DNA of 64,000 nt from an uncultured Clostridium sp. (GTDB taxonomy: Bacteria > Bacillota_I > Bacilli_A > RF39 > UBA660), in NCBI GenBank assembly GCA_947427095.1, contig CANEGO010000002.1, positions 27,888 to 91,887 of the forward strand, written 5' to 3'. How positions within the stretch are numbered: the stretch's first letter is position 1; every line of letters starts with the position of its first letter. Below, one piece after another: positions 4,236 through 64,000 of this stretch. A program made the position numbers and the translations under genes. The notes below the pieces were generated by a model. It saw nothing but the letters and a program-made list of their open reading frames with translations, searched no databases and was not told where the DNA came from.

Positions 4236-5529
4236 TAACAGTAACCCTTGCTTTATCCGTTTTTCCGTTTGTCGATTTAACCGTGATTATTGCAGTTCCA
4301 CGGGTTCTTGCATAAACTACACCATTATTTACTGTTGCAACCGATGGGTTGTCACTACTCCAAGAAATAGTCTTATCAGTTGCGTTAGTTGGGGTATAAT
4401 AAACCGTTAAGGTTTTACTTTGGCCAGGTGTCATATCAAGTGTATTAGGAGACAATTTTACACCACTCAAAGCAATCAAAGATTGTTTAACGATTATCGT
4501 TCTACTAGTACTTGCTTTGTTTCCATAATTGTCGGTAACCTGGTAAGTAACATAATAAGTTCCAGGATTACTAATATTTAAATTGGATGAAACTCTAACC
4601 GATGAAGTTATATTTCCACCTAAAGAATCAGTTGCAGAATAACCGGGGTCATTATACATTTCTCCTACGTTAATAATAATTGTTTTACTACCATATAAAG
4701 TTATTGTTGGAGGGGTTGTTGGTCTTCTTGTGGTTGCCTTGGTTGTCACTTTAGAAGTTGATTTTTTTGTAGTTTGTCTAGTAGTAGTAATAGGCTCACT
4801 TGTTGTTGGAGTGGGTATAACTTTAACAGTTCTTTTAACATCTGCTTTATTACCAGCCTTATCAGTTACTGAATATGTAATTACGTAACTCCCTACTTTT
4901 TTTGTATCAACACTTCCACTTTTTACAATTTTAGACGTTATATCTCCATCAATGTTATCAGTTGCTTTTGCACCTTGATCCTCAAAATTAGCCCCTTGAT
5001 TAATAGATATTTCACTTTCACCCACAAGTGTAATTGTCGGTAAAACAGTATCTTTAACAGTAGTTGTCGTTGTTTTATTATTTTCCTTATCATTACTAAT
5101 ATATCCGGTTGTGGTATACATGTTTCCACATTTTATATACGATGAATACTTTTCACTTTCCTGTTTTGAAGCAATAACGTAACCATTACACACCTTGGCC
5201 GCTTTTACCTTGGCAGAATCGATAAATCCTCCATTTTCTATTAACAATTCTTTTAAATCTATTCTTATTTCTTTATCTGTTAATATTATACTCTTTTGTG
5301 ATATATAGGTTGGTGCCTCCTCTATCATCCTAGCCTCTAACTTATTAAAATCAGCACTAGTATATTCTTCTTTTTTTCCAGAAGTAGTTACCTTTACAAT
5401 TATAATAATTATAGTAATTAAAATAACTAATGCTAACACTGCTAAAATAACCATTCCACGAGTTATTTGAAACTTTTTTTTATCCTTGGTTTCATATTCA
5501 ACGTCAGTAGAATAATTTGTCTCGCTCAT
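4231..5529 (-). CDS. membrane-anchored surface protein, 2x DUF5011 Ig-like plus Big_2 domain
   Basis: N-terminal TM helix. Two repeats of P(T)ITL.G...I..G....D.G..ATD...G(D/N)ITS......G.Y.(I/V)TY.VTD..GNKA...R(T)..V. C-terminal Big_2-like segment. Thr/Pro-rich linkers. Confidence 0.7.
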   Translation of the reverse strand: MSETNYSTDVEYETKDKKKFQITRGMVILAVLALVILITIIIIIVKVTTSGKKEEYTSADFNKLEARMIEEAPTYISQKSIILTDKEIRIDLKELLIENGGFIDSAKVKAAKVCNGYVIASKQESEKYSSYIKCGNMYTTTGYISNDKENNKTTTTTVKDTVLPTITLVGESEISINQGANFEDQGAKATDNIDGDITSKIVKSGSVDTKKVGSYVITYSVTDKAGNKADVKRTVKVIPTPTTSEPITTTRQTTKKSTSKVTTKATTRRPTTPPTITLYGSKTIIINVGEMYNDPGYSATDSLGGNITSSVRVSSNLNISNPGTYYVTYQVTDNYGNKASTSRTIIVKQSLIALSGVKLSPNTLDMTPGQSKTLTVYYTPTNATDKTISWSSDNPSVATVNNGVVYARTRGTAIITVKSTNGKTDKARVTVK

Positions 5530-5633
5530 TAATATCACCACCATTTATTTTTCAAAAATATTATAACATGAATATTAAAAAAATACTAACATTTATATTA
5601 GCATTTTATATAGTTAAATCAAAGTAAAGTTTT

Positions 5634-5667
5634 TATAAAAAAATCCAAGTTTTTCACTTAGATTTTT
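5634..5667 (-). terminator. rho-independent terminator after gap
   Basis: Minus strand: AAATCTAAGT, gaaaa loop, ACTTGGATTT (one G-U pair), then TTTTTT. Confidence 0.55.
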
Positions 5668-5669
5668 AC

Positions 5670-6677
5670 TTACTTTTGCATTAAATATTTAGCAGTTCTA
5701 ACCATTTGTGCCGAATAACTCATTTCGTTATCATACCATGCTACAACCTTAACTAGTTGTTTACCATCTACCTCAATGACGTTAGTTAATAAACCATCTA
5801 CTAAGGCTCCACACTGCATACCAATTATATCACTAGATACGATTGGGTCTTCAGTATACATAATGGTTTGGGACTGATTTTCTTTAAATAGTTTATTTAT
5901 CTCTTCTTTAGTAACACTTCTTTTAAGTTCAAGTGTTAAATCAATAACTGAACCAGTAGTAACCGGAACACGCATTGCCGTTCCATCTAATTTACCCTTT
6001 AATTCTGGAATTACAAGGCCTATTGCGCTTGCTGCTCCAGTTGATGACGGAACAATGTTTGCTGCAGCTGCTCTTCCTCTTCTTGCCATATGACCTTTTT
6101 TATGTGCAACATCAAGGGTTGACTGATCGTTAGTATACGCATGAACAGTAGTCATAAAGCCTTTTTCTACACCATAGTTATCACAAAGTAACTTCATAAC
6201 AGGGGCTAGGCAATTAGTTGTACAACTTGCAGCACTTATTATCTTTTCATCACCAGTTAATTCTTCATGATTAACGTTGTAAACAATTGTTTTTAAATCA
6301 CCTTTAGCAGGTGCTGAAATAATTACTTTTTTTGCTCCTGCTTTTACGTGTGCTTCCGCTTTTTCCTTACTAGTAAAAAATCCGGTGCATTCAAATACTA
6401 CGTCAACATCAAGACTTTTCCATGGTAATAAAGATGGATCAGACTCACTATATATCTTTATTTTATCACCATTTATTATAATGTTATCGTTATCATTTGT
6501 TATTTCATCTGGTCTATACCTTCTATGCGAAGTATCATACTTAAGTAAATATGCAAGTTGGGAAGCGTCAGTTAAATCATTTATCGCAACGACATCAAAA
6601 CTAGGATCATCTTCCATTAATCTAAACACTAATCTTCCAATTCTACCAAAACCATTTATCGCTACTTTAATAGCCAT
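5670..6677 (-). CDS. gap: glyceraldehyde-3-phosphate dehydrogenase
   Basis: INGFGRIGR NAD-binding motif, SCTTNC active site, WYDNE near the C-terminus. Confidence 0.95.
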   Translation of the reverse strand: MAIKVAINGFGRIGRLVFRLMEDDPSFDVVAINDLTDASQLAYLLKYDTSHRRYRPDEITNDNDNIIINGDKIKIYSESDPSLLPWKSLDVDVVFECTGFFTSKEKAEAHVKAGAKKVIISAPAKGDLKTIVYNVNHEELTGDEKIISAASCTTNCLAPVMKLLCDNYGVEKGFMTTVHAYTNDQSTLDVAHKKGHMARRGRAAAANIVPSSTGAASAIGLVIPELKGKLDGTAMRVPVTTGSVIDLTLELKRSVTKEEINKLFKENQSQTIMYTEDPIVSSDIIGMQCGALVDGLLTNVIEVDGKQLVKVVAWYDNEMSYSAQMVRTAKYLMQK

Positions 6678-6711
6678 TATATCATCTCCTATGTTTATAT
6701 TGTATCATTTG

Positions 6712-8370
6712 TTAATCTTTAAAACAACTTCCCCCAATAAATTCTCTTATTATCGAATCATTTGGAACATCATCACTTGGCATTCCTAAAATCACCCTAA
6801 ATAAGTTTATTAGTCTAATTGCTTCATCGTAATTAGGATCGTCTTCAGGTACAGAAAACAAAAGTGGCTCCGCATATGTTTTTAAAACTCCAAGTTCATA
6901 AGCAAGTGATGTATTAAGAATATAATCTGCATCTTTTACATATGGTACAATCATTTCTTCTTCAGCTTTTCTTACGTTTTTCCACGTCTCTAAAGTAATG
7001 GATGCAGATACTCCGCGCGACATATTGTCTCTTACTATCCTTCTTAAAAGCCTGTTATCGGTTTGCTTAAATAAATTATGATTATCTACGTTTAGAGGGG
7101 TAAGTGGACATATATATATCTTAGACTTGTTTTTATCTGGAATCATTTCAGTAAGCTTTTCGTTAAAAGCATGTATTCCTTCAATTACAAGTACACTTTT
7201 TTCATCCATTTTAATTAAATTATCGCTTTCCTCTTGCTTACCTGATATAAAATTATATTTTGGCAACCGTACTTCCTTACCGTTTAATAACTCTGATATT
7301 TTTTTATTAAACTGACTTGTATCAATTGCTTCTATTCTTTCTTTTTCAGGTTCCCCATTTTCGTCTAAAACCCGGTCTTTAATATTAACATAAAAATCAT
7401 CGATTGATATTGGTAATGGCTTTAACCCCTTGCTCCTTAAAAATAAAGTTAACTTCTTTGAAGTGGTTGTTTTTCCAGATGAAGATGGACCAGTAATAAG
7501 AACAACCTTTAAATCCTTATCTTTACTTATTTTATCAGCTATTTCAAAAATCTCATTATTTAAAATAGATTCACTAATTCTTATTAAATCTCCATAATCC
7601 CCCGTTGAAATCATACGGTTAAGTTCTACCGAGGTACTTATTCCTAAACTATTTAAATATAAATCGTTTTTTTCAATAGCTTTAAGTAACTTATCATTTT
7701 TAGTTAATTTTATATTTTCAAAATCATCTATATTATGGTGCCCCGGTATCATAAGAATCATCTTATTATCTTTTAAATATTTAACGTTATACTTTTCTAA
7801 CTTACTTGTGTTATTAGGTAAAACACCATAAAAGAAATCAAGAGTATCATCTAATTTATAAAGACTTATGCTAGAATTACTAATATATCTAAGAGAATTT
7901 GCTTTATCCATTTGATTTATTTTTTCATAATAATCAATAGCATCTAATCTAGATACCATAATCTTAGTTATTGGGATTTTTGCTTCACATAACTCTCTCA
8001 TTCTTATTTTTATCTTTTCTGCAGTAACCTCAGAAATTAAATTATTTGTTAAAATCTCAACATATATTCCGTCATCAACCATATGGAGCATGCGAACATC
8101 GCAATTTAGTACGTCTTTTACTGCCGTGCTAAATAAAAATAAAATACCTCTCTCATACGTTTTTATGCCTACTTGTGACGTAACATCAAAAAAATCAATG
8201 GTACAATTTTTAGTTAATTTGCAATCTAACCCAGTTAATCTATTATTAACAGAAGAAACAATAATCTCTTTTTTAAAATCATCTTTCACTAAATTTGCAA
8301 TATCGCTAATTAATGTACCTTTTTCCTGTTCAAATTCCTTATCTTTATACTTGATTTTTATAACAGACAT
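6712..8370 (-). CDS. TGS/ThrRS-SAD-like N-domain fused to uridine kinase-like P-loop kinase
   Basis: Walker A GPSSSGKTTTSKKL in the C-terminal half. N-terminal TGS-like fold pattern. Only 34 nt upstream of gap. Confidence 0.7.
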   Translation of the reverse strand: MSVIKIKYKDKEFEQEKGTLISDIANLVKDDFKKEIIVSSVNNRLTGLDCKLTKNCTIDFFDVTSQVGIKTYERGILFLFSTAVKDVLNCDVRMLHMVDDGIYVEILTNNLISEVTAEKIKIRMRELCEAKIPITKIMVSRLDAIDYYEKINQMDKANSLRYISNSSISLYKLDDTLDFFYGVLPNNTSKLEKYNVKYLKDNKMILMIPGHHNIDDFENIKLTKNDKLLKAIEKNDLYLNSLGISTSVELNRMISTGDYGDLIRISESILNNEIFEIADKISKDKDLKVVLITGPSSSGKTTTSKKLTLFLRSKGLKPLPISIDDFYVNIKDRVLDENGEPEKERIEAIDTSQFNKKISELLNGKEVRLPKYNFISGKQEESDNLIKMDEKSVLVIEGIHAFNEKLTEMIPDKNKSKIYICPLTPLNVDNHNLFKQTDNRLLRRIVRDNMSRGVSASITLETWKNVRKAEEEMIVPYVKDADYILNTSLAYELGVLKTYAEPLLFSVPEDDPNYDEAIRLINLFRVILGMPSDDVPNDSIIREFIGGSCFKD

Positions 8371-8492
8371 ATAATCACCCTACTTTATTCTTCTACTATA
8401 TTATATTTTATCAGAAATGATGAAAAAAGTCACAATATTTTAGGTAATATTTACAAGCTTACCATACATAATATTACTAGGGTGATAAAAAC

Positions 8493-9062
8493 ATGAACGT
8501 AATTCCAAGTGTTATTGAAAAAACTAAAGGGGTTGAAAGAGCATATGACATATACTCAAGATTATTAAAAGATCGGATAATATTTATAAGTGGAGAAATC
8601 GACGATGATTTAGCAAATAGTGTAATTGGGCAATTATTATTTTTAGATTCCCAATCACATGAAGATATAAATATATACATAAATAGTCCAGGTGGAAGTA
8701 TTACCGCTGGAATGGCAATATATGATACAATGAACTTTATAAAAAGTGACGTTTCAACGATATGTGTTGGCATGGCTGCATCCATGGCATCAGTTTTACT
8801 TGCAAGTGGGAAAAAGGAAAAAAGATTCATTTTACCTAATAGTGAAGTAATGATTCACCAACCTCTTGGAGGGGTAAGCGGGCAAGCTACTGAAATAAAA
8901 ATAGTAGCAGATCGAATTTTATATTTAAGAAACAAGTTAAATAAAATCTTATCAGAAAAAACAGGACAAGATATAAAAATAATAGAAAAAGATACCGAAA
9001 GAGACCATTATTTATCAGCTGAAGAAGCTTTAGAATATGGTTTGGTTGATAAAATATTATAA
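8493..9062 (+). CDS. clpP: ATP-dependent Clp protease proteolytic subunit
   Basis: [25 protein letters not shown] (Ser), MIHQP (His). Full-length ClpP similarity. Confidence 0.95.
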
Positions 9063-9096
9063 AAAAAACTCTATATATCACGATAGAGTTCTTTTT
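9061..9096. terminator. bidirectional terminator between convergent clpP and lipoprotein gene
   Basis: AACTCTAT, 8-nt loop, ATAGAGTT. Flanked by A8 on the 5' side and CTTTTT on the 3' side. Confidence 0.6.
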
Positions 9097-9097
9097 A

Positions 9098-9550
9098 TTA
9101 ATTCAAGGTTTTTGATTGATTAGAAATCCTTTGTTCAATTTCTATTATATCTGCATCAGTAAATTCATCTTTCTGAGCTTTTTTTAATTCATCAGCAGTT
9201 AAATAAGGTGTAATTGATTCTATTTTTGTATCAGGATCTAATGTTTTTATATCTGTGTATTTGCAAATTTCGGTGCCTTCATAATTCTCATTTTCGACAT
9301 GGTAAATTTCACCGGAAACTATATCTTTATAATGTTTACCATTGCAATTATCATAACGTGGATAATAATAACTCATTACCAAAGGTTGGTCATCAACATA
9401 TACCACTGCCGTCCTTTCTAGAATTGTATCTTCTAACAAAGCTTCCTTTTTCCCACATCCAGTAAATACCGTTGCTATCAACGTTCCTGCTACTAGTACT
9501 GCAACACCCTTCTTAACTAATTTTTTCTTTAATTCATTATCTTTTTTCAT
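9098..9550 (-). CDS. lipoprotein, unknown function
   Basis: Signal peptide with lipobox VFTGC. Strong GGGGG SD. Confidence 0.7.
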   Translation of the reverse strand: MKKDNELKKKLVKKGVAVLVAGTLIATVFTGCGKKEALLEDTILERTAVVYVDDQPLVMSYYYPRYDNCNGKHYKDIVSGEIYHVENENYEGTEICKYTDIKTLDPDTKIESITPYLTADELKKAQKDEFTDADIIEIEQRISNQSKTLN

Positions 9551-9585
9551 TCAAATATTCCCCCTTCTTCATTTGAATGTGCATT

Positions 9586-9616
9586 ATTATAACACGACCC
9601 CCCCCCCACTTGTCAA
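9586..9616 (-). promoter_or_regulatory. sigmaA-type promoter with a G10 tract in the spacer
   Basis: Minus strand: TTGACA, agt, G10, tcgTGt, TATAAT. Perfect -35, extended perfect -10, 19-nt spacer. Confidence 0.6.
9598..9607 (-). repeat. homopolymeric G10 (C10 on plus strand)
   Basis: By eye, the only G/C run longer than 5 in the whole window. Confidence 0.9.
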
Positions 9617-9682
9617 TACTTTTTTGTGGAAAACTAGAAAAAAATAAAAAGCATCTTTGCAGACACTTTTTACTCTTAAAAA

Positions 9683-10213
9683 TCATAACTTTTTCTTATC
9701 AATGAAGGTTTTCATGCAGTCCATTATAAATAATATTAAAAGTGAAATTGTAAGCCATCCAGGAATCTTCTTTATTATTCCTTTTAAAAGAGGATGAATT
9801 ATATAAATGAAAATCACACTTGCAATTCCCCAAGTAATCGTCATTTCTAAAGAAATATATTTTCCTATATGGTATTTATGACTATTATAATTCCAAAAAG
9901 TAAGACCAAACATTTTTTCAATTAATACTCCGCCTAATGCCTCTATTGTTGAAAGCACTATCGCAACCACAAAGAAAACTATCACCGTTTCATAAACACG
10001 GTTCATATGGAGATTTTTAAATAAATATTCTGAAACAAATAAAATAGTAACCGCACCTATTCCATATACTGGTGTCCAAAAACCGTTTAAAATACCACTT
10101 TTAAAGTTCGTATGAGTTAAAAAAGCTACCAACGTTTCTAAAATATGGCCTAACACAGAATATACAAAAAAACAATTTAAATAATACATAATATCACCAA
10201 TCATAGTATGCAT
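9683..10213 (-). CDS. PF06541-type (CmpB-like) membrane protein
   Basis: MYYLNCFFVYSVLGHILE start is typical of this family. About 5 TM helices. The true start may be the internal MYYLN. Confidence 0.55.
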   Translation of the reverse strand: MHTMIGDIMYYLNCFFVYSVLGHILETLVAFLTHTNFKSGILNGFWTPVYGIGAVTILFVSEYLFKNLHMNRVYETVIVFFVVAIVLSTIEALGGVLIEKMFGLTFWNYNSHKYHIGKYISLEMTITWGIASVIFIYIIHPLLKGIIKKIPGWLTISLLILFIMDCMKTFIDKKKL

Positions 10214-10234
10214 TATTAAATTGCTTTCTATTCA

Positions 10235-11641
10235 CTAAACCTGGTTCCAAATGGTTCCTTCTCTAGTATCTTTTAATTCAATTCCTTTTTCTAGTAAATC
10301 GTTTCTTATTTTATCTGCTAAGATAAAATCTTTATTTTTTTTAGCTTCCATTCTTAAGTTTATTTGTTCTTGTACGTATTTTACTAAATCAGTATCAATA
10401 CTATTTTGTCCTTTTTCTAATAAATCCAATGATAAAACACTATCAAAAGATTTTACTAATTCTTTTTTTGTCAAATCATTTATATCATTATCTTTTAAAA
10501 CATCGTATAAAACAGTTATAGCACTTGATGTGTTCATGTCTTCATTAATATATTTTAAAAATTCATTTTTATAATAATTAAACTTATCTTCATCTAATAT
10601 TCCATCATCTTTTAAAGATAAAGTTTTTTGTTTTAACTTTTTATATGCTTGCCCTGCATTATCTAAATTTTCATAAGTAAATATAAGTTGTTTTCTATAA
10701 TGAGATTGTAAGCACATCAAACGATACGATAACGGATTATATCCTTTTTCTTCTAATAATGAAACTGTTAAAAAGTCTCCGCTACTTTTACTCATCTTAC
10801 CATTTTTATCATTTAAATGTTCACAGTGTACCCAATAATTACACCACTTATGTCCTAAATACGCCTCACTTTGAGCGATTTCATTAGTATGATGTGGAAA
10901 TATGTTATCTACCCCGCCACAGTGAATATCTAAGTATTCTCCGCAGTGCTTCATGCTGATGCATGAACACTCTATATGCCATCCTGGATATCCTAATCCC
11001 CATGGAGAATCCCACTTTAGCTCCTGGTCTTCAAATTTAGATTTAGTAAACCATAACACAAAGTCAGCTTGGTTACGTTTATTATCGTCATTTTCAACAC
11101 CTACACGCGCTCCAACTACCATCTCATCTTCTTTATGGTTAGTTAAAACGTAGTAATCATCTAATTTAGACGTATCAAAATAAACGTTCCCACCAGATAA
11201 ATAGGCAAAGCCCTTAGAAAGTAAGTTTTCTATCAAATTAATATATTCCGGAATTAAGTTTGTAGCAGGTTCTATCGTCTCTGGTTTTTTAATATTTAAC
11301 TTTTCAAAATCTTTAAAGAATGCATCAGTATAAAACTTAGCAATATCTAAAACACTTTTATGTTGCTTTTTAGCGCTTGCTACCATTTTATCATCACCAG
11401 TATCAGAATCGCTTGATAAATGACCAACATCGGTAATATTCATTACCCTTTTGACATTATAACCATTATACATAAGTGTTTTTTCTAAAATATCTTCCAT
11501 TATGTAACTTCTTAAATTCCCGATGTGTGCATAATGGTATACCGTAGGCCCACAGGTATACATCTTAATAAGTTCAGGATTATGAGGAGTAAATTCCTCT
11601 ATTTTTCTCGTAAGCGTATTATATAATTTCACATTCATCAC
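10235..11641 (-). CDS. cysS: cysteine--tRNA ligase
   Basis: HIGN and KMSKS class I motifs. Full-length CysRS similarity. Confidence 0.95.
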   Translation of the reverse strand: MMNVKLYNTLTRKIEEFTPHNPELIKMYTCGPTVYHYAHIGNLRSYIMEDILEKTLMYNGYNVKRVMNITDVGHLSSDSDTGDDKMVASAKKQHKSVLDIAKFYTDAFFKDFEKLNIKKPETIEPATNLIPEYINLIENLLSKGFAYLSGGNVYFDTSKLDDYYVLTNHKEDEMVVGARVGVENDDNKRNQADFVLWFTKSKFEDQELKWDSPWGLGYPGWHIECSCISMKHCGEYLDIHCGGVDNIFPHHTNEIAQSEAYLGHKWCNYWVHCEHLNDKNGKMSKSSGDFLTVSLLEEKGYNPLSYRLMCLQSHYRKQLIFTYENLDNAGQAYKKLKQKTLSLKDDGILDEDKFNYYKNEFLKYINEDMNTSSAITVLYDVLKDNDINDLTKKELVKSFDSVLSLDLLEKGQNSIDTDLVKYVQEQINLRMEAKKNKDFILADKIRNDLLEKGIELKDTREGTIWNQV

Positions 11642-11690
11642 TTCCTATTCATTTAATTATACACTAAATAATAAAAGAAAGAAAGAAAAA

Positions 11691-13967
11691 TCAATTCAGT
11701 GTTCCTGCTTCTTTTCTTTCTTTAATCATCTTTATAGCTACTTCTTCCTTATTATCCAAAACCGCATCCATTATCTTAAACTCAAATTCATTTTCTACCA
11801 GTTTCGATATACTACAATAATCCTTAGTCAATGAAACATTATTAAAAATATGATTTATGATACCCTCATCGTAACTTACTTTTATTTGTTTATACTTTTT
11901 AATAACCTTATGAATATTATCTTCTATTATTTTTTTAATAGTTAAATCGCATGGATCTTCCATTTCTATTGAAACAGATACTTTTCCTAAAAGGCGATCA
12001 TCATCTGAAAAGCTATGTTTTTTTACTTTGCTAAAGCCTAGCTGTTTATGATCAGAAGTATTACATGTTATGAAAAATATTACAGTGTTACTGAAATCTA
12101 TTATTTTACCAGCAGCATCTTCTACTTTTCCAAACTGCAATATCCTTATAAATAAATTTTTAAATTCATCACATGCCTCATCATAATTATCAACTATTAT
12201 GGCTGAGTTAGGGTTAGTTCTTATTCTTTCAAAAATATTGTTTTTATTATCATACCCTAAATACCCTGCAGTTGTTCCAATTAATTTACTAATTGTATGA
12301 TGTTCAGTATACTCTGAGCCGTCTATATTTATTATATTTTTCTCATTAACAAGCTTTTTCGAATAATTTTGTGCAAGTAAAGTTTTGCCAACACCATGAT
12401 TACCATTTATATGGATTGAATAACATGATTTATCTTCTAAAAGTTCTTTTTTTCTAAGTGACCTTACAAGCTTTTCTATATTTTTTTCTTGGTCATAAAT
12501 AACACTATTTAATTCAGCCTCTAAAGATTTATAAAATTCTTGTCTTTTATCTTCTAAAGAAAAAAACATAACGTTGCCCTTCGCCTTTATAACATCTATT
12601 ATTTCTTTTTTCGTTACTTTCTTTCTGCTCTTTTTAATATCTTGCAAGCTTAACATCAATTTATTTTCTTCTGTTTTTAGTTCATATGCTCTTTTAAAAT
12701 TCTTTTTTGATAAAGCCTTAACTTTTTCATTTTTTATTCTTTCTAATCTTTCACTAAATACTCTTTTTTTTCTTTCATTGTAATTTTCAGAAACTGATGC
12801 TTTTGCACATACCTCATCTAGTATGTCTATTGAACGGTCTGGTTCAAACCTATTATTTAAATATTTCTCTGATAAAAAAACAATATCTTTTAACAAGTCA
12901 TCACCAATTGTTATATCATGGTATTTTTCATAAAGTGGTTTTATTCCTTTTAAAATTTTTATCACGTTTTCTAGTGAGGGTTCTTCTACATTTACACTTT
13001 GAAATCTCCTTGCTAAAGCCGCATCTGGTTCTATAAATTTTTTATATTCATCTAGCGTAGTTGCTCCTATTATTCTTATCATTCCACGAGCTAGAGCTGG
13101 TTTAAATATGTTTGAAGCATCTATTGCACCTTCTGCTCCTCCCGCACCTACCATTGTGTGAATTTCATCAATAAAAAGAATTATATCGCTATTATCTTCT
13201 AATTCTTTTATTAAAGTTTTCATTTTTTCCTCAAACTCACCACGATATTTTGTACCAGACACTAACTGAAAAATATTTAATGAAATTATCTTTTTATCTT
13301 TTAGAAAAGATGGGCATTTATCAGAAACCATAAGAAGAGCAATTCCCTCTACTATAGCAGTTTTACCAACTCCAGCCGGCCCAATTAAAATAGGATTATT
13401 CTTTTTTCTTCTTAGTAGTATTTCTAACGCCTTATTAATTTCTTTTTCTCTACCTATTACTGGGTCAAGTTTCTTTTCCTTTGCAAGCCTAGTCATATCG
13501 ACCCCTAAATCATCTAATAAAAGTTTCTTTTTTTTGTTACTTTTAACATTTTTAACGTTCCTAAGGTCAAAATATAATCGGTCTAAGTTTACTTTCATAC
13601 TTCTTAGTATTGTGTAAGCAACGCCATCTTCTTCATCTAGAATATTAATAATAAGTAGCTCCGGATTAACACTTTTGCTATTATCTTCTCTTGCTTCTAT
13701 TACCGCGTTTTCTAACACTCTTTTTAAAAGTGGGGTATACAAAACAAAATCATTTTTTTTAGTTCCTATTCCAACTAGAGAAACTAACTTTTCCTTAAAC
13801 TTTTTATAAGTTACTCTATGTTTTTTTAAAATCGGAACTAATTTACTATCCTTTAAAATTGATAATAGTAAATGTTCACTTCCAACATAAGGATGAATTA
13901 ACTCCTCTTTTTCTCTTTCTGCTTGCTTTAAAAGATGCCTTGTTTCTTCACTAAAATTAACAAACAT
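11691..13967 (-). CDS. clpC: ClpC-like AAA+ chaperone with degenerate D2 Walker B
   Basis: Clp_N repeats. D1 has GPAGVGKT and ILFIDEIH. Coiled-coil middle domain. D2 has GNHGVGKT but [12 protein letters not shown] loop present. Confidence 0.8.
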
Positions 13968-55067: not shown

Positions 55068-55976
55068 CTAAGCAATACTACTATTATCTCCACTATAAGT
55101 TCCACTAGTTTGGTAAGCATCGGTTACAAGCACGACTGCTTTTGGATCAATTTGCTCAATGCCCTCACTTACTTTAAAATATTCTCCTGTAGGAACTACG
55201 CACATAATAATTTGATCTTTTTTATTAGTATATCCACCTCTTGTTTCTATTAAGGTAATACCTAATTTTAGCTCATTTAACAAGTAATCACATACCCTAT
55301 CGTCCTCATTAGTAGTAATATAAACCGCCTTATTTCTAGATATACCTAGTACCACTTTATCCACCATTATGTTTATTATATATAGAACTATCATGGCATA
55401 CAACACCCTGGTCCATCCAAAGAAAAAACCACCGATTAAAACAATTATTCCGTCAGTCATTAACATCGCGGTGCCTATTGATACTTTGAAATATTTAGAA
55501 ACAATTTGGTTTAATATATCTGTACCACCAGTTGTAAATCCACTTTTAAAAACAATACCAGCGGCAAATCCTACACAAACACCCCCAATAATAGTAATTA
55601 AAAGCAAATCTGAATTATCAATTACTATATAATTACCTATATTAGAAGTAAGTTTTACAAAAATGGGAAATAAAAGTGATCCAACAACCGAATCGAGGGT
55701 TTGTTTTTTTCCTAGCAAGAAAAAACTCAAAGTTAGAAAAAATACATTTAATATTAATATCATTATAGATGGATCTATTAAGCTTTGCGTGATTATTGAT
55801 ATACCACTAGCTCCTCCATAGACAATATTGTTTTTGAAAAAGAATAAATTATATGCTACTGCATAAATTACAACCGCTATAACTAATAAAACATACCTTT
55901 TTAATAAATGAGTTTTTTCAACAAGTTGTAGTATATTTTGCTTTCGCTTTTCTTTAAGCCTCTTAAAAAGTTTCAT
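55068..55976 (-). CDS. YitT-family membrane protein (DUF161 plus DUF2179)
   Basis: GGASG motif. C-terminal DUF2179-like ITLIETRGGYT. Confidence 0.75.
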   Translation of the reverse strand: MKLFKRLKEKRKQNILQLVEKTHLLKRYVLLVIAVVIYAVAYNLFFFKNNIVYGGASGISIITQSLIDPSIMILILNVFFLTLSFFLLGKKQTLDSVVGSLLFPIFVKLTSNIGNYIVIDNSDLLLITIIGGVCVGFAAGIVFKSGFTTGGTDILNQIVSKYFKVSIGTAMLMTDGIIVLIGGFFFGWTRVLYAMIVLYIINIMVDKVVLGISRNKAVYITTNEDDRVCDYLLNELKLGITLIETRGGYTNKKDQIIMCVVPTGEYFKVSEGIEQIDPKAVVLVTDAYQTSGTYSGDNSSIA

Positions 55977-57061
55977 TTTGTTTTTCCTTTCTTAAATAAC
56001 TATCTATAAATTCATCTATGTTACCATCCATAACCTTATTAACATTTGAAGTCTCATATCCTGTTCTATGATCCTTCACCATTGAATATGGATGCATTAC
56101 GTAACTTCTAATTTGAGACCCAAATTCTATACCACTATTATTACTTTTTGCCGAGTCTAGTTTATCTTTTTGTTTCTTTTGTTCTAATTGGTATAATTTA
56201 CTTTTTAATACTTTTAAAGCAGTTTCCTTATTTTTTATTTGACTACGTTCATTTTGGCAAGTAACGACTATACCAGTAGGAATATGCGTTACTCTTACAG
56301 CGCTATCTGTAGTATTAACGCCTTGTCCTCCAGCACCACTACTTCTATAAACATCAATTCTTATATCAGAATCATTTATTTGGATATTTATATTATCATC
56401 AAATTCCGGTATAACATCTACCGCCGCAAAAGATGTGTGCCTTCTGTTATTAGAATCAAAAGGCGATAATCTTACTAACCGATGAACACCTTTTTCTGAT
56501 TTTAAATACCCATAAGCATAGCTTCCTTTTACTATGCAAACAACGCTTTTAACGCCTACCTCTTCGCCAGGCTGCTCATCAAGTATTTCACATTTGAAAC
56601 CTTTTTTATCAAAATATTTTAAGTACATTCTAAGTAGCATTTGAGCCCAATCTTGACTTTCTGTTCCACCAGCACCAGCGTGAATTTCAAAAATAGTATT
56701 TTTTAAATCGTATTCTCCACTTAAGAAAGAGGATATTTCTTGTTCCTTTAAAAGAACTAACGTTTCATTATAAATTGATTCATATTCCATTGTTTCCTCT
56801 TTATCAAGTTCAGAAGAAATACACATTTTTAATAAATCTATATTGTCCTTTATCTTAATAATAGGAGTTACAATTTCTTTTAATGAATTAAGTTCTCTAA
56901 TTATTTCTTCGGCTTTTTTAGGATCATTCCAAAACAAAGGATTTTTACAAGCTTCCTCAAGTAATGTTATTTTTTTGATTTTATTATCTAAGTCAAAGAG
57001 ACCCCCATATTTTAATCAATGATTCGCTTAGAGTATTAACATCTTTATTAGTAATTTCCAT
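55963..57061 (-). CDS. prfB: peptide chain release factor 2, needs programmed +1 frameshift
   Basis: Frame 0 encodes MEITNKDVNTLSESLIKIWGSL then TGA (56996-57061). The +1 frame continues DLDNKIKKITLLEEACKNPLFWNDP... (55963-56994). SPF and GGQ motifs present. Confidence 0.9.
56992..57007 (-). promoter_or_regulatory. RF2 autoregulatory frameshift site
   Basis: TGGGGGTCTCTTTGAC has an internal SD-like GGGGG, a 3-nt gap, then CTT TGA C. This is the same layout as E. coli prfB. Confidence 0.85.
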
Positions 57062-57078
57062 ATAATCACCTATTTTTA

Positions 57079-58140: not shown

Positions 58141-58172
58141 TGTCCACAAAATTAAATTTAATTTTGTGGACA
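58141..58172. repeat. perfect 32-bp palindrome
   Basis: TGTCCACAAAATTAAA|TTTAATTTTGTGGACA, located 34 nt upstream of the Ppx-like ATG. Confidence 0.9.
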
Positions 58173-58306
58173 AGTTGTAAGCAAATTACAATTTACAAAA
58201 TCAATTAATGAATTTTATATATTTTATAAGGACTTATAGATTATTTACCACAACATTGTTTATATTTCTTTCCCGAACCACAAGTTGAAGCAAATCAAGT
58301 ATATAT

Positions 58307-58401
58307 AGTATTTATGTTATTTACTATATTATTGTTATTTCTTTATTTTGCGGATTCCGTAACATCAGTATTTGTGGTATTTATAGTATTATTGTTACTA
58401 T
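58307..58401. repeat. imperfect ~34-bp direct repeat, 60-bp period
   Basis: AGTATTTATGTTATTTACTATATTATTGTTATTT versus AGTATTTGTGGTATTTATAGTATTATTGTTACTA. About 27 of 34 positions identical by eye. Confidence 0.6.
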
Positions 58402-58498
58402 AAATTATTTCTTATCAGCAAACATTTTGCAAACATTGTTTGCATCCTTCACTCACTAAGATTATATCACAAATATTTATTTTTTGTTTTTTTATTTA

Positions 58499-61400
58499 TT
58501 AATAAGTAGCAATTAATTCTAATAATTCTTTTATTGGAGCATTTTCAACTTCGGATGGTATAATTGGGTCGTCATCTTTTTTTATTGCCATAGACTCAGC
58601 ATCTCCTTTTCCAATTTCATAAGCTTGTTTTATATTGACTTTACTCAATTTAATTTCATAATCAGTTAAAGGGTTAATTTGAGAATCATTACACTTTATT
58701 ATCGGAAGTATCGTGATTTTAGGCTTATTTCCATTTTTAATAATATTTTCTAAAACATTTATATTTCTGTCATTATCACAATTCATTTCATGTATACGTG
58801 TTGGCGTTTGTACAATATAATTTTCTTTGACATCTCTAGGAATTTTGGCTTTGCCCATTATCATTATTCTATAATCATAAATACGATTTTTATTTATTCC
58901 CTTTATGAATGACAAAATTATTTTCCCTTCTTTATCATCCCTTCCCACGATGTCAATTAAGTCTTGAAAAACTTTTTTAGCCCCACTTTCATTTTCAAAT
59001 AAGAATCCTATTTTAATAAAATCTTTATTTATTAAATCGCCTATGTACATAGTGCCCTTCCATTGAGCTATATCCCAATGGTTTGTTTTAATTAAACCAG
59101 AGGTAAAAATATTATCATGTGATACATTTTTAAATCTTTTCTTTTCATCTTTTTTATATTCTATTTTATCTTTATCTTCAAAAGGATCTACAAATTCTTC
59201 AGTAGAGTTTTCTATTTCAATACCTGAATACCATTCAACTTTTCTAGTAATTTTGTAATCAGAAGTATTCTTATTCTCTTCGTCAGAGCCAAAGATTTTA
59301 TTAAGATTATATATGGTGTTTGTATGATTTATACTTCTTTCAAAACTTTGATCATCAACCAAAAGTTTCTTAAGAGTTTCTTCATAGTCTTTGTATATAA
59401 AGCTTATAGCTAAAATATTTGCCAATAATTTGAATAAAAAATCTGATATAATTTTATGATTTTCTATATTAATATCATACATTTCTATTGTATCAATCAT
59501 AATGGTATAGGTATCTATACCATCAAAGGAATAATCGATGCTAAATTCACCTGTATTTCTTTCTTGAAGTTCAAGTATAATATCTCCTCGCATAAAAGTA
59601 CTATTAATATGCATAGTTGCTAGAGTATTTTCTAATAAAGCAATAATAAATTCAGAAAAGCGATGCCCTAATCTAGTTGCTTTAAATTTAACTACTATTT
59701 TATTACCATTTAACCAAGATTGAATTTTCTTATCTTTCCCATTTAAAAAAATTGGCTCAGGTAACCCTTGTAATAATGAATCCTTATAAAAACTCAATAT
59801 TATTTTATCAAATTCATTTTTATCTCCATTACATTCTTTTAGCATTTGCTCGTCATATTCACCAATTACGTATTTAGCCATAACTTCTGCAGTAATCAAA
59901 CCAGTTAGCCTGCAGTTGTCTATAATTATATTCATCATATTAAAATCTTCTACTTTAGTCGATAATAATGATGATGATATCAAAGCCTCTCTTTGTTGAA
60001 AATATTCATTTTCTTCATCTAAATTAATTTGTTCATTTTTTTCCAACAAAACACTTAATAATATATTTTTTATTTCAAACCACTTTATTGCTTGTTCTAC
60101 ATTTCCCTGCTGAATTTCTAAATCAATTACTACATTTACAACTTTAATTGAAAAGGCATCTATAGTATTATCTTTCAAAAAAATATCTAAGAATACGGAT
60201 ATTGCTGCAATATAATAGTTTTTTGCAGCATATTTTAATCCAATAGCTTCAAAATTGCCACCAATATTTAAATATGCTTCTACTAATTTACCATCTGATT
60301 CATCTTTATAAAGAAGAGTCAAACACTTTCCTAAAATATTAATTGCATCATAATGATTATTACTTGATGATAGCATTTTAGCTCTTTTTAAATACATATC
60401 TGCTTTTTGTAAATCTGCTTTTCTAGTCGTTAATTCCTCGGTTATTAAATCATATAAAGCAATAAAGTCATCATTGTCATTAAAAACAGGTAAAAGATTT
60501 TCTACCATTTTAGATAATGTTATAAAGTCATATTCTTTAAATGATTTAGCTTCTTCAACAATAGCAATTAATTCCTTAAATTGCTTATTAATATTCTCCT
60601 CTAGAAAAATATTTACAAAGCATAACTTTGTTTTAGCTTCTAATTGGGTAACTCTACTTTTTGAACTTTCTTTTTCCTTTAATAGTTTTAATAATACTTC
60701 AGTTTTTTCTTTAACTGCTTTTTTATCTCTTTGTTTTCTTGTGTACTCCAAAGTCCATAAAGTTGCTAACTTCAGAATTTCTTCTATCTTTTTATCTTTA
60801 CTTACTTCATCCTGATATTCCATATAGTACTTTTCGAAATTGGCCTCATCATTTAGCCACCAATGATAATACCATGCCAAATCATATAAAATATTTCTTT
60901 CATCAACAATATCATTTTTCTCTCTAGCCATCCTCAATGCTCGATTAAACTTCCCAACTACAGTTACTTCATCTTCTTCCAAATCTCTACTTAATATAGC
61001 GGACTCTATAGCCAAATCAATAACATCTTTATTTATTATTTCTTTTACTGAATAATCTTGAAGTTTCTTTTCTATATCAAATATTCTTCTTTGTTTTTTT
61101 AAATCATTTATACCTGTCTGTTTTTCTTTTATAGGAGTAGTAATACCTATAATAACTAATAAATCTAAATTCTTATTATCTAATGCTTTTTCTAATATCC
61201 AAGTTTTATCTAAAATTATTATATCTAATCCCGTTTCTTCTTTTTTAGCATCTTGGTATTCTAATCTTTTATCATTTTTTATTGCTTGATTTGTTACAAA
61301 GAAAATCTTAGTATAACCTCTTTTCGTATCTATAATTTTTTTAATATCCGAATTACATTTCGTTTTCCAAGTTTTCTTTAGGCTTATAGCAAATGCCCAT

Positions 61401-61705
61401 CTGTCGTTTGAGGTATTCAATCCATACCACCAAAATTTTTGAATCTTTTTTGAAACAGGAAAATTCTCTGTATCAACCTTTCCATCTCCTCCGCCTGCTG
61501 GTCCAGTCTCTTCTATTAAATTTGGACATATTTCTCTTTCTAGTAACTTTCTAATAAACTCTTCAAAATTGAAATGCATGTTCTGTTCAGATAATCTTGA
61601 TAGCTGAAAATCTAATATTTCTCTTGAACATTCCACTTTATCGATTTCCTTTGAATCAGAAAATTGATCTGGATGCAATCTTTTTAATAAATCTCTTGGT
61701 TCCAT
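58499..61705 (-). CDS. orphan 1068-aa protein: Mrr-cat-like PD-(D/E)xK nuclease N-domain plus large helical/TPR-like body
   Basis: AGGAGG SD. N-terminal FEEFIRKLLERE...GPAGGGDGKVD...AFAISLKK...IFFVTNQ...IIILD. No Walker A found anywhere. Confidence 0.6.
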   Translation of the reverse strand: MEPRDLLKRLHPDQFSDSKEIDKVECSREILDFQLSRLSEQNMHFNFEEFIRKLLEREICPNLIEETGPAGGGDGKVDTENFPVSKKIQKFWWYGLNTSNDRWAFAISLKKTWKTKCNSDIKKIIDTKRGYTKIFFVTNQAIKNDKRLEYQDAKKEETGLDIIILDKTWILEKALDNKNLDLLVIIGITTPIKEKQTGINDLKKQRRIFDIEKKLQDYSVKEIINKDVIDLAIESAILSRDLEEDEVTVVGKFNRALRMAREKNDIVDERNILYDLAWYYHWWLNDEANFEKYYMEYQDEVSKDKKIEEILKLATLWTLEYTRKQRDKKAVKEKTEVLLKLLKEKESSKSRVTQLEAKTKLCFVNIFLEENINKQFKELIAIVEEAKSFKEYDFITLSKMVENLLPVFNDNDDFIALYDLITEELTTRKADLQKADMYLKRAKMLSSSNNHYDAINILGKCLTLLYKDESDGKLVEAYLNIGGNFEAIGLKYAAKNYYIAAISVFLDIFLKDNTIDAFSIKVVNVVIDLEIQQGNVEQAIKWFEIKNILLSVLLEKNEQINLDEENEYFQQREALISSSLLSTKVEDFNMMNIIIDNCRLTGLITAEVMAKYVIGEYDEQMLKECNGDKNEFDKIILSFYKDSLLQGLPEPIFLNGKDKKIQSWLNGNKIVVKFKATRLGHRFSEFIIALLENTLATMHINSTFMRGDIILELQERNTGEFSIDYSFDGIDTYTIMIDTIEMYDINIENHKIISDFLFKLLANILAISFIYKDYEETLKKLLVDDQSFERSINHTNTIYNLNKIFGSDEENKNTSDYKITRKVEWYSGIEIENSTEEFVDPFEDKDKIEYKKDEKKRFKNVSHDNIFTSGLIKTNHWDIAQWKGTMYIGDLINKDFIKIGFLFENESGAKKVFQDLIDIVGRDDKEGKIILSFIKGINKNRIYDYRIMIMGKAKIPRDVKENYIVQTPTRIHEMNCDNDRNINVLENIIKNGNKPKITILPIIKCNDSQINPLTDYEIKLSKVNIKQAYEIGKGDAESMAIKKDDDPIIPSEVENAPIKELLELIATY

Positions 61706-61731
61706 ACAATACCTCCTTGAAATGCACCTAT

Positions 61732-61740
61732 ATTATAACA
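61732..61740 (-). promoter_or_regulatory. extended -10 (TGTTATAAT) for the 1068-aa gene
   Basis: Minus strand reads aaTGTTATAATataggtgcatttcaAGGAGGtattgtATG. Confidence 0.45.
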
Positions 61741-61774
61741 TTATTATTTCTAATATTAATAGCTAACTATGCCA

Positions 61775-63048
61775 TTAATACTTATATTTAATAATCGTAT
61801 TTATTATATCCGATTTAACTATTTGTTCAAACGATTCGTTAGCACATTTTTTTGTTTCTTCATTGCTACATATATAATAATTTTCTGTGGTTTCTACTTT
61901 ACTATGTCCAAGTACACTAGACACATCTTTAATTTCAACTCCGCTTCTTAATGTCTTAGTTGCAAAGCTCCCTCTTAAATCATAAAATCTACAGTTTTTT
62001 ATATTTAGTTCTTCATGAATAATTTTAAATGGATACCTGAGTAAATCTGTTCCAGAATATTTACCGTCCTTTTTTGTAAAAACTAAACTAACTTGTTCTC
62101 TATTTTTTGATTTGTGCTTAAGATCAACTATTTTATACTCTATAATCTTACCATATTTATTTTTAATTTCTTCTAAATAATAATTATGATAGCTTTTTCT
62201 GTATAGTTTTTTGTTATTTTCTTGATTCTTTTTGTAGTTTTGCAAAGCCATTTTTAAAGTGTCACAGATATAAACATATCTACAACTACCTTGTGTTTTA
62301 GTCGTACCTAAGTACCATCTGCCAGTTTCGTCTCTCTTCTTTGGATATACTGTTTTATTAACTTTTATTATTTGTTTTTCTAAGTCTATATCATCCCATG
62401 TCAATGCTAATACTTCTCCTGTTCTCATTCCTGTATAACATGCAGTTAAAAATGCACAAGTAAATGTATAGTTATTTTTGAACCTTAATAGTATCGTATC
62501 AATTTCTTCTTGAGTATAGATATGTTTTACATCGTTTTTTTTACCTCAAAAAAATAGACTCTTGGCAATTGTAAATCAGCAGCTGGATTGTTTTCAATAA
62601 ACCCAAAATAATAAGCAGCATCTCTTAATGATCTTCTAATCACCTTTTGATAATTTCTTAATGCATCTTTTGAATTTACTCTTTGCGCAATTCTAAGTAA
62701 TGCTTGATTTAGAACATAAGGAGTTAGATATGCTAGTTTATATTTACCTATTTCTTTTTTTATAGTTTCAAATGCTTCAGAATATCTTTTTGCTGTTGTA
62801 TATTTATAATTAATTTCAAAATACTCTTTCATCCAATAATCTAAATAATCGGAATATAACATTTGTGATTGTTTAAATGTTACACCGCCATTTATATATT
62901 TTTCATAAGCAATTTGTCCAGCGGCATATGCTTCGTTCTGGGTTTTAAAGCCTGACTTATTAATAAACTTCCTTTTACCATTAATTGTTCCAATTTCAAA
63001 TTGATATTGATAAACCTTTCCTCTTTTTCTTACATTTACTCTTCTCAT
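61775..63048 (-). pseudogene. int: phage-type tyrosine recombinase/integrase, split by a frameshift in an A8 run
   Basis: N-terminal ORF (arm-binding plus SAM-like domains, MRRVNVRKRGKVYQYQFE...). C-terminal ORF has TGMRTGE, YDLRGSFAT, LGHSKVETTENYY. The frames overlap at 62535-62542, and A9 would fuse them. Confidence 0.8.
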
Positions 63049-63116: not shown

Positions 63117-64000
63117 TTAATCAATTAATAATTTGTCATCATCATTGACTTGTTTTTGTAATAATTCTAATTCTTTGATATTCTTATTGTCTTTTAATAC
63201 TTTCATTTGTCTTCTTGCTGAATTATTGAGTCTAACAAGTCTTTCATTTTGAGGTACTTTTTCTTCAATCAATTCCGCATTTGTATTTTGAAGATTATTT
63301 AATATTACCAAATGTAGTAGATCAGTATAATCCCTCATATTCCCCTCTTTTGCAAGGTCTGGATTATTATCTCTCCATTCTTTAGCTGTCATACCAAATA
63401 ATGCAACATTTAAAACATCTGCTTCTTCAGCATATACAAATTTCTTTTGAGCTTCAGTAAGCGTTGGGACTATATAAGTTTTTACTGCATCAGTGTGAAC
63501 TACATAATTTAACTTTGAAAGTATTCTATTAGCTTGCCAATCTATTTTTTCTTGATATGCCTCATTAGTTTTTAATCTTTCAAATTCAGTTATTAAATAT
63601 AATTTGAACTCTGGAGATAACCAACTAGCAAATTCAAAGGCAATGTCTGGATGAGCAAAAGTTCCAATGCTATACCTTCCACCCTTAGAGATAATACCTA
63701 TTGCATTGGTTCTTTTAATCCATTGAGATGGAGACATTGCAAAAGAATTTCTACCATACTCAGTTTTAATTTGGTCGAATTCGACCAAATTAAAATCAGG
63801 ATTGTGGATTTCTTCCCATAAACCAATGTAATCAATAGTTGTAATCCTTCTTAACCAATTCTTTACTGTAAAAGATGGATCACTAGAATTTTGATACTTA
63901 GCCAAGTCTGTTAATGAAATATAATTAACATTCCCTACTCTTAAAATTCCCACTTTATTTTCCTTTACAATTATTTCTGCTGTTACTTCATCTTTTTTCA
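63117..64000 (-). CDS. KilA-N domain protein (5' end at or just beyond the window edge)
   Basis: NYISLTDLAKY...NWLR...IGLWE...AHPDIAFEFASWLSPEFKLY. The frame stays open to the last base. The last two bases read TG, consistent with an ATG starting at 64001. Confidence 0.75.
   Translation of the reverse strand, partial: KKDEVTAEIIVKENKVGILRVGNVNYISLTDLAKYQNSSDPSFTVKNWLRRITTIDYIGLWEEIHNPDFNLVEFDQIKTEYGRNSFAMSPSQWIKRTNAIGIISKGGRYSIGTFAHPDIAFEFASWLSPEFKLYLITEFERLKTNEAYQEKIDWQANRILSKLNYVVHTDAVKTYIVPTLTEAQKKFVYAEEADVLNVALFGMTAKEWRDNNPDLAKEGNMRDYTDLLHLVILNNLQNTNAELIEEKVPQNERLVRLNNSARRQMKVLKDNKNIKELELLQKQVNDDDKLLID

Follow-up and report, generated by a model that had tools for sequence, protein, structure and literature searches.

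DSR2 and DSR1 are chains of about 1,000 amino acids (aa) in which an N-terminal SIR2 effector is followed by a large sensor made of helical repeats and a C-terminal part; they contain no NTPase and are activated by binding a phage structural protein. Upx was reportedly described by Gao et al. in 2020 as an uncharacterised PD-(D/E)xK defence protein. It is now known as a single chain that joins a PD-(D/E)xK nuclease to a large sensor, again with no NTPase, and that is activated by the phage large terminase (PMC13601566, PMC13099982). Here we describe a gene for a 1068-aa protein in a 64,000-nucleotide stretch of DNA from an uncultured Clostridium sp. (contig CANEGO010000002.1, positions 27,888 to 91,887; hereafter the window). 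Its product belongs to a large, uniform and uncharacterised family of single-gene proteins whose distribution is patchy and crosses phyla. With moderate confidence we read its product as an immune protein of the sensor-effector type, directed against phages or mobile elements, that works alone and spreads horizontally, and in which a head of restriction-endonuclease (REase) fold would be the effector and a TPR solenoid with further C-terminal domains the sensor, with no NTPase switch.

A preliminary description of this DNA had called the protein an orphan that could be assigned to no named family. The second half of that statement stands. For the window protein there was no match in Pfam (E ≤ 1), NCBIfam or PADLOC-DB v2.0.0 (E ≤ 1), phmmer and profile searches of PDB sequences with the whole protein returned insignificant TPR-like matches only, and the source annotations of family members all read 'hypothetical protein'. 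The first half does not stand. A word-index search with the window protein found 131 homologues: gut Clostridia, Bacilli and Longicatena have full-length proteins that are 55-67% identical to it, and those of Bacteroidota, Alphaproteobacteria and one Methanobacteriaceae metagenome-assembled genome are full-length and 24-30% identical. When the family profile was run against 1.84 billion cluster representatives, 3,392 clusters (50% identity) were matched at E ≤ 1e-3, of which 1,343 reached E ≤ 1e-30; each of the best 150 was matched in a single stretch, with lengths of 983-1,141 aa. When 185,579 species, with one genome per species, were scanned from the signature pattern Px[GA]GGD[GS]K[VT]D as seed, 481 encoding stretches were recovered, corresponding to at most about 0.26% of species-representative genomes. 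The taxa include Bacillota, Bacteroidota, Chloroflexota, Acidobacteriota, Planctomycetota, Verrucomicrobiota, Cyanobacteria and Parachlamydiales, together with members of the Pseudomonadota (Pseudomonas, Kluyvera, Serratia, Rahnella and Xanthomonas).

Within species the gene is equally sporadic, being present in 26 of 5,426 complete E. coli genomes (0.5%). The E. coli gene is 97.7% identical in DNA to a Kluyvera family member, and a 99.5% identical copy of the element that carries the gene in the window is found in another background; these two observations indicate horizontal transfer. Thirteen plasmid records carry a family gene, six of them conjugative and four mobilizable. A homologue was found by tblastn in only one of 50,697 phage records, and a PHROGs search of 40 members returned nothing recurrent, which argues that the family is not phage-derived. 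The sole phage-record match (MT836254.1, 3462-6554, 30% identity) lies in a contig of 11.6 kb from human faeces that is deposited as 'Bacteriophage sp.' and bears no annotation. Exchange of the sensor in plasmid homologues, considered because tblastn aligned only residues 1-490, was rejected for the Agrobacterium protein, the one homologue checked, since it matches the family profile from end to end.

The preliminary description had proposed an Mrr-like nuclease head. The motifs it quoted are all present and form the most conserved part of the family: in family alignments G68, G72, G73, D74, K76, D78, S108, K116, D120 and R129 are invariant, and F47, E48 and K110 are conserved at 90% or more. 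In a full-length AlphaFold2 (AF2) model built from an 89-sequence alignment (pLDDT 87.4, pTM 0.76), DSSP assigned helices to residues 44-58, 113-126 and 144-158 and strands to residues 63-65, 79-81, 103-108, 133-138 and 161-165. The order of elements is a helix holding F47-E48, a strand, the glycine-rich loop (pLDDT below 50, indicating flexibility), a strand after D78, the strand WAFAIS108-L-K110, a helix, the KIFFVT strand, a second helix and the IIILD strand. As modelled, this topology, alpha-beta-beta-beta-alpha-beta(-alpha-beta), is the order of the restriction-endonuclease fold.

The head resembles Mrr_cat (PF04471) in the order and spacing of the FE-helix, the GDG(G/K)xD loop and the hhhh(Q/S)xK, hFhT(T/N) and hhLhD strands. 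Against E. coli Mrr, the Glu of helix 1 (E172) pairs with E48, the second Asp of GDG(G/K)xD (D203) with D78, the (Q/S)xK strand (Q219-x-K221) with S108-x-K110, F249 of the next hydrophobic strand with F135, and L271 of the last strand with I164. The spacing from Glu to Asp is 31 residues in E. coli Mrr and 30 in the window protein, in which 14 extra residues separate the second strand from the third. A Foldseek search of BFVD with the whole model matched a phage 'Restriction endonuclease' (A0A8S5QJ85; probability 1.00, E 0.077, 183 columns), a weak match whose aligned region is unreported. It most likely involves the head, because the C-terminal model has no REase match in the PDB. On topology, motif spacing and this one weak structural match, with no significant profile match, we consider the REase-fold assignment of the head likely.

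The model is all-helical behind the head, from residue 199 to 646. The TPR character suspected for this region was borne out: Foldseek of the full-length model against the PDB gave a list saturated by TPR proteins, LGN and SPINDLY among them (probability 1.0, E ~1e-3), and Pfam TPR_8, TPR_1, TPR_12 and TPR_2 matched up to 6 of the 40 members (best E 1.5e-6 for TPR_1 and 5.6e-6 for TPR_8). Its length needs correction, from some 650 aa to about 450 aa. Likewise, the tail, put at about 250 aa with no recognised motif, spans about 420 aa and consists of two well-predicted alpha/beta domains joined by a disordered, poorly conserved linker (22% gapped columns). Modelled separately, residues 640-1068 reached a pLDDT of 87.1 and a pTM of 0.84. 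A Foldseek search of the PDB with this model gave no significant match (best E 0.012, probability 0.23), the best defence-related one being Upx (9wuf; E 0.19, probability 0.51), which is also non-significant. Conserved residues of the second domain, whose ordered part runs from 866 to 1050 in the full-length model, include W877, W882, D924, Y945, R970, N981, D1035 and P1050.

The protein has no Walker A motif, as had been noted: neither GxxxxGK[ST] nor [AG]xxxxGK[ST] occurs in its 1068 residues. No AAA, NACHT or STAND NTPase was matched by the window protein in Pfam or PADLOC, or by the 40 members in Pfam. A degenerate STAND NTPase behind the head was considered and rejected, since that segment is all-helical and has no P-loop. 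Conservation falls sharply along the chain. Distant members are 44% identical to the window protein over the head, 20-24% over the helical region, 19% over C-terminal domain 1 and 28% over C-terminal domain 2. By analogy, a conserved effector with a fast-evolving recognition part is the pattern of known single-chain immune sensors. Separately, the motif P-x-x-F-S-D-S (residues 12-18; 61652-61672) precedes the head in all phyla and is near-invariant, and no search suggests a function for it.

The surroundings of relatives were compared by neighbour clustering, using crude ORF (open reading frame) calls at 99 loci in 45 groups between which the family protein is below 60% identical. No neighbour family occurred in more than 3 of the 45 groups and none at a fixed position; the gene therefore travels alone. 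Contexts varied among these groups, and the flanks repeatedly held defence and mobility genes. For 26 divergent loci, the ORFs up to three genes away, 148 in all, were searched with PADLOC (E ≤ 1e-10); among the matches listed were GajB, HerA, DRT types, a type III methyltransferase and several PDC families, in tallies that cover the best 25 families and hence give no exact count of matching neighbour ORFs. The loci also contain integrases, relaxases and type IV secretion system genes. At one locus (L001), ShosA (E 2e-68) is a neighbour, with a ShosT/PsyrT-like partner directly downstream. PDC-S39 and PDC-M62A/B flank the family gene beside a serine recombinase in Sphingobacterium, and an Albibacterium integrase-relaxase element (L012) carries a type IIG restriction-modification (R-M) enzyme, a SLFN/AlbA_2 protein, a helicase and T5orf172 pair and an Mrr_cat-nSTAND3 gene. 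The Bradyrhizobium gene sits in an integrative and conjugative element (ICE) with a RES-domain protein and TrwB/TrwC, and an Agrobacterium plasmid has an Avs2-like/SMEK protein as neighbour.

In E. coli E308 (L103, 14971-20090) the homologue, WP_039268304.1, has a truncated tail-fibre gene of a prophage on one side and a P4-family primase, also truncated, on the other. Remnants of several prophage genes make up this locus, which is close to paoABCD, and in another strain (H23) the homologue is broken by IS1. Among close Bacillota relatives a 335-aa RhuM-family gene (L005, 8967-9974; PDC-S05, E ~1e-157) lies about 25 nt upstream of the family gene on the same strand. Upstream ORFs of the same size and position at two further loci (L020, 8968-9975; L022, 4362-5369) apparently belong to the same family, and PDC-S05 was matched by three neighbour ORFs of a set that includes them. 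The RhuM gene is absent in distant groups, and the window has KilA-N and an integrase instead. RhuM and the family gene could form a clade-specific operon.

The family has already been flagged computationally as defensive. In Table S10 of DefensePredictor, cluster WP_039268304.1 from E. coli (1083 aa) is entered as 'Predicted novel defense gene', with a mean log-odds of 8.44 against a strict threshold of 4 (PMC13092281). This protein matches the family profile from end to end (E ~1e-300) and belongs to the same family as the window protein. The listing is a machine-learning prediction and carries no name, mechanism or domain analysis, and our literature search found no named system with this architecture of nuclease-like head, TPR region and two tail domains. 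The family is neither orphan nor wholly unnoticed.

These data allow us to propose a mechanism. Residues 40-195 would form an Mrr-type REase-fold module that acts as the effector, with a putative active site of E48, D74/D78 and S108-x-K110 and the invariant K76. The fast-evolving TPR solenoid and the two family-specific C-terminal alpha/beta domains would act as sensor and regulator and keep the head in check. Once an infection cue is bound, most likely a phage protein, the nuclease would be freed or assembled with no NTPase switch, and DNA would be cut and the infection aborted. Architecture, conservation, solitary mobility and the defence and mobile-element surroundings are shown by the data, whereas nuclease activity, trigger, autoinhibition and outcome are inferred from them. 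The idea of a single-gene defence candidate survives from the preliminary description, on the solitary gene, the lack of a PADLOC, Pfam or NCBIfam match, the defence and mobile-element context and the DefensePredictor listing; the label of orphan and the domain proportions do not. Tentatively, the family may further be the first example of a widespread class of NTPase-independent pattern-recognition nucleases, in which an atypical S-x-K head of Mrr fold with a mobile GGGDGK loop would be restrained by a TPR solenoid and two domains of unseen fold that recognise a conserved phage component; such a class would extend from E. coli to archaea and have escaped all domain databases.

Several results weigh against a working nuclease sensor. 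Pfam at E ≤ 10 gave no Mrr_cat match in the 40 members, a profile of the N-domain alone returned two chance matches from the PDB, and the whole-family profile returned nothing relevant there. With hhalign, the family profile did not match the single E. coli Mrr sequence, and against a profile of 29 Mrr orthologues the probability was below 1%, a weak negative in view of the narrow template (Neff 2.6, all sequences at least 69% identical). A relaxed local alignment to these orthologues brought the expected motifs together, but at P=0.13. The Mrr-like head therefore has motif order and spacing, predicted topology and the weak BFVD match on its side, and Pfam, PDB-profile and hhalign significance against it. 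Serine is invariant where the first residue of (D/E/Q)xK is expected and K110 is not strictly invariant, so the head could be catalytically atypical or inactive. The C-terminal domains hold many invariant polar residues (E692, R790, D924, Y945, R970, N981 and D1035) and may be enzymatic rather than sensory. One locus (L013) has no obvious defence or mobile-element genes, the enrichment of such genes elsewhere was judged against general expectation and not against matched loci, and WP_039268304.1 is absent from the 94 transcription units selected for testing (PMC13092281).

The serine, the imperfectly conserved K110 and the charged and polar residues of C-terminal domains with no known fold match would all be explained if the head were not the effector. 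It would then be either an inactive REase-fold module or a module that binds a ligand or DNA, and killing or signalling would reside in the C-terminal alpha/beta domains as a new enzyme fold. A single match to NA-iREase1, an 'inactive restriction endonuclease' family, in the Pfam scan of the 40 members (E 0.096) points weakly the same way. We regard this as unlikely, given that conservation peaks in the head, that invariant acidic and basic residues (D74, K76, D78, K116, D120 and R129), of a kind that inactive modules usually lose, are nowhere denser than there, and that the C-terminal domains contain no recognisable catalytic motif.

The genomic contexts invite another explanation, namely that the gene serves its mobile element through exclusion of competitors, addiction or stabilisation, or processing of element DNA. 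With few exceptions the gene is carried by an integrative element, an ICE or a plasmid or adjoins one, in the window it directly follows the integrase at the element edge, and it is nearly absent from phage genomes. A core element function would, however, be linked to its machinery, and here element types with different integrases, relaxases and replicons carry the gene with no conserved element gene adjoining it. At one locus (L013), moreover, the gene has no mobile-element gene in its vicinity, and the exclusion of competitors would itself count as a defence phenotype. This account seems to us rather improbable.

Mrr-family enzymes are stand-alone Type IV nucleases, and the window protein might be a Type IV-like restriction enzyme, dependent on modification or sensing DNA in some other way, whose Mrr-type head cuts DNA read by the C-terminal domains, with the TPR region as scaffold or oligomerisation module and no phage protein sensed. 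Consistent with this are the Mrr-like motif order and spacing, the solitary gene in R-M-rich islands such as that of Albibacterium and the fair conservation of C-terminal domain 2 across phyla, as a DNA reader might show. Against it, the PDB search with residues 640-1068 gave no SRA, EVE, winged-helix or other DNA-reader fold, and the 40 members had no DNA-binding Pfam match. TPR solenoids of 450 aa typically recognise proteins and do not read DNA, and an N-terminal nuclease is the opposite of the domain order of E. coli Mrr. Together these points make a Type IV-like enzyme quite improbable. A housekeeping protein misread as defensive, suggested by core genes (Ppx-GppA, prfB and ftsEX) that begin about 400 bp away, is effectively refuted by the rarity of the gene among species and E. 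coli genomes, its variable contexts, its position inside a bounded element and the lack of an NCBIfam or Pfam family.

The features of the locus are collected in Table 1. The reading frame and its strong Shine-Dalgarno sequence are as the preliminary description gave them, as is the extended -10 element TGTTATAAT at 61732-61740, to which a TTAATA -35 with a 16-nt spacing can be added. The site lies within the 69-nt gap between the integrase pseudogene and the 1068-aa gene. Similar matches are common in the AT-rich DNA of the window (27% GC; 47 against 38 +/- 6 in shuffles), and a native promoter is, on this weak indication, plausible. No intrinsic terminator was found for the gene.

Table 1. 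Positions in the window of the 1068-aa gene, its predicted protein regions and the surrounding element
Feature	Position	Strand	Basis
Complete coding sequence, 1068 aa	58499..61705	minus	ORF list; stop codon 58499-58501, ATG 61703-61705
Shine-Dalgarno AGGAGG	61712..61717	minus	6 nt upstream of ATG; sequence read
Promoter-like site (TTAATA -35, 16 nt, TGnTATAAT extended -10)	61732..61759	minus	Consensus scan, 10/12 match plus TG
N-terminal segment, residues 1-39	61589..61705	minus	Alignments; near-invariant hP-x-x-FSDS motif (P12, F15, S16, D17)
Restriction-endonuclease-like alpha/beta domain, residues 40-195	61121..61588	minus	AF2 secondary-structure order, motif spacing, conservation
Signature loop G68-P-A-G-G-G-D74-G-K76-V-D78	61472..61504	minus	Invariant columns; strongest motif of the family
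All-helical TPR-like solenoid, residues 196-650, putative sensor or scaffold	59756..61120	minus	AF2 helices 199-646, Foldseek, Pfam TPR
C-terminal alpha/beta domain 1, residues 651-805	59291..59755	minus	AF2 models; invariant G667, E692, R790
Linker, residues 806-865	59111..59290	minus	pLDDT 60-75, no regular structure; length variable
C-terminal alpha/beta domain 2, residues 866-1068	58502..59110	minus	AF2, pLDDT above 90
3' untranslated tail of mobile element	58223..58498		L014 identity ends near 58223
Tyrosine integrase split by frameshift into 173-aa and 217-aa ORFs	61775..63048	minus	Pfam Arm-DNA-bind_4, SAM_3, Phage_integrase; three-frame translation
KilA-N protein, 278 aa, same element	63117..63953	minus	Pfam KilA-N; PADLOC PDC-S22, E 7e-116

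The gene had been placed between an island junction and a broken integrase, with a KilA-N gene beyond, and this was confirmed. A contig from another sample (L014) is 99.5% identical to the window from 63450 to 58223 and shares nothing beyond. Because identity stops there, the element ends near 58223, which marks its junction with host DNA, and the 1068-aa gene is its last cargo gene. The order, all on the minus strand, is KilA-N, split integrase, 1068-aa gene, about 390 bp of non-coding DNA and then core genes (Ppx-GppA, prfB, a YitT-family membrane-protein gene, ftsE, ftsX and an M23 peptidase); at its other side the element continues past the window end. The integrase frameshift lies near '...FFEVKKTM*' and separates an Arm-binding/SAM part (173 aa) from a catalytic part (217 aa). 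The split integrase and an identical 1068-aa protein are common to the independent metagenome contigs L014-L018, so the split is not an assembly error of the window, and the element here may be immobilised. A protein identical to that of the window is present on seven other contigs in all. The element holds at least two candidate defence genes, the 1068-aa gene and the PDC-S22 KilA-N gene.

Some further observations concern the element and its borders. In L014 the identical element borders other DNA (5230-11802) and then prfB and tilS. The ORFs of this block encode a 589-aa protein of no known type, an HTH_3 protein (weakly RmrA-like), a 365-aa BNR/Sortilin-like protein, an adenosine-deaminase-like protein (weak CARF_ADA) and two small products, and the block may be a second variable cargo region. 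On the host side of the junction in the window there is a perfect palindrome of 16+16 nt (TGTCCACAAAATTAAA / TTTAATTTTGTGGACA; 58141-58172). It precedes the start of Ppx-GppA by about 35 nt and may be an operator or a recombination site. The window prfB carries a programmed +1 frameshift site, GGGGG TCT CTT TGA C (about 56990-57005, minus strand; short frame '...IWGSL*', main frame 'DLDNKIKK...'), of the classical kind expected for RF2. prfB is near the element both in the window (about 55963-57070) and in L014 (12049-13026), an RF-domain gene (PCRF/RF-1) directly precedes the integrase in Albibacterium (L012, 1-2026), and secA directly precedes the pair of RhuM and family genes in L005 (6059-9974). 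The position of elements near release-factor or secA genes in unrelated hosts may reflect a recurrent integration hotspot or coincidence.

If the window protein is a working immune sensor, a nuclease effector could be controlled by TPR recognition with no need of the STAND ATPase switch of Avs, and single-chain sensing would have been solved independently a second or third time, beside Upx and DSR-type proteins. The C-terminal part, about 420 residues long, is predicted with confidence, has no relative among solved structures and is likely to contain new folds. The family also fills in an unannotated gene type that recurs in mobile elements of gut Bacillota, and the E. coli member WP_039268304.1 makes the proposal directly testable.

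Each of the known systems shares a part of this design. Mrr has Gln or Glu before the catalytic-position Lys where the window protein has Ser. Unlike Mrr, the head here is N-terminal, fused to 870 further residues and unaccompanied by a winged-helix DNA-binding domain; in E. coli Mrr the order is opposite. Avs/AVAST proteins, like the window protein, are encoded by single genes in defence islands and place an N-terminal nuclease-type effector before a long TPR-like sensor, and in both families the effector is conserved while the sensor diversifies. The effectors of Avs proteins are Mrr-like or of other kinds. They differ in their STAND P-loop NTPase module, in place of which the window protein has only helices, and they lack the two extra C-terminal alpha/beta domains. 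In the comparison with DSR2 and DSR1, a SIR2 NADase effector stands against a probable nuclease fold in the window protein, and no relation in sequence or fold was detected.

Upx is the closest characterised analogue, in logic more than in sequence. It too is one large polypeptide (about 1,200 aa), its large sensor is likewise unannotated, it lacks an NTPase of the STAND or any other type, it has a broad, patchy distribution across phyla, and it acts alone, as the window-type gene is also solitary. Its canonical nuclease is C-terminal and its sensor N-terminal, the reverse of the order seen here, and that sensor is not a TPR solenoid. The two have no sequence relationship (no PADLOC match), the sole structural echo being the non-significant match to 9wuf. 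Among single-chain nuclease-repeat sensors, the window protein and its family are distinguished by the absence of an NTPase, the atypical motif of the head and two C-terminal domains with no solved relative.

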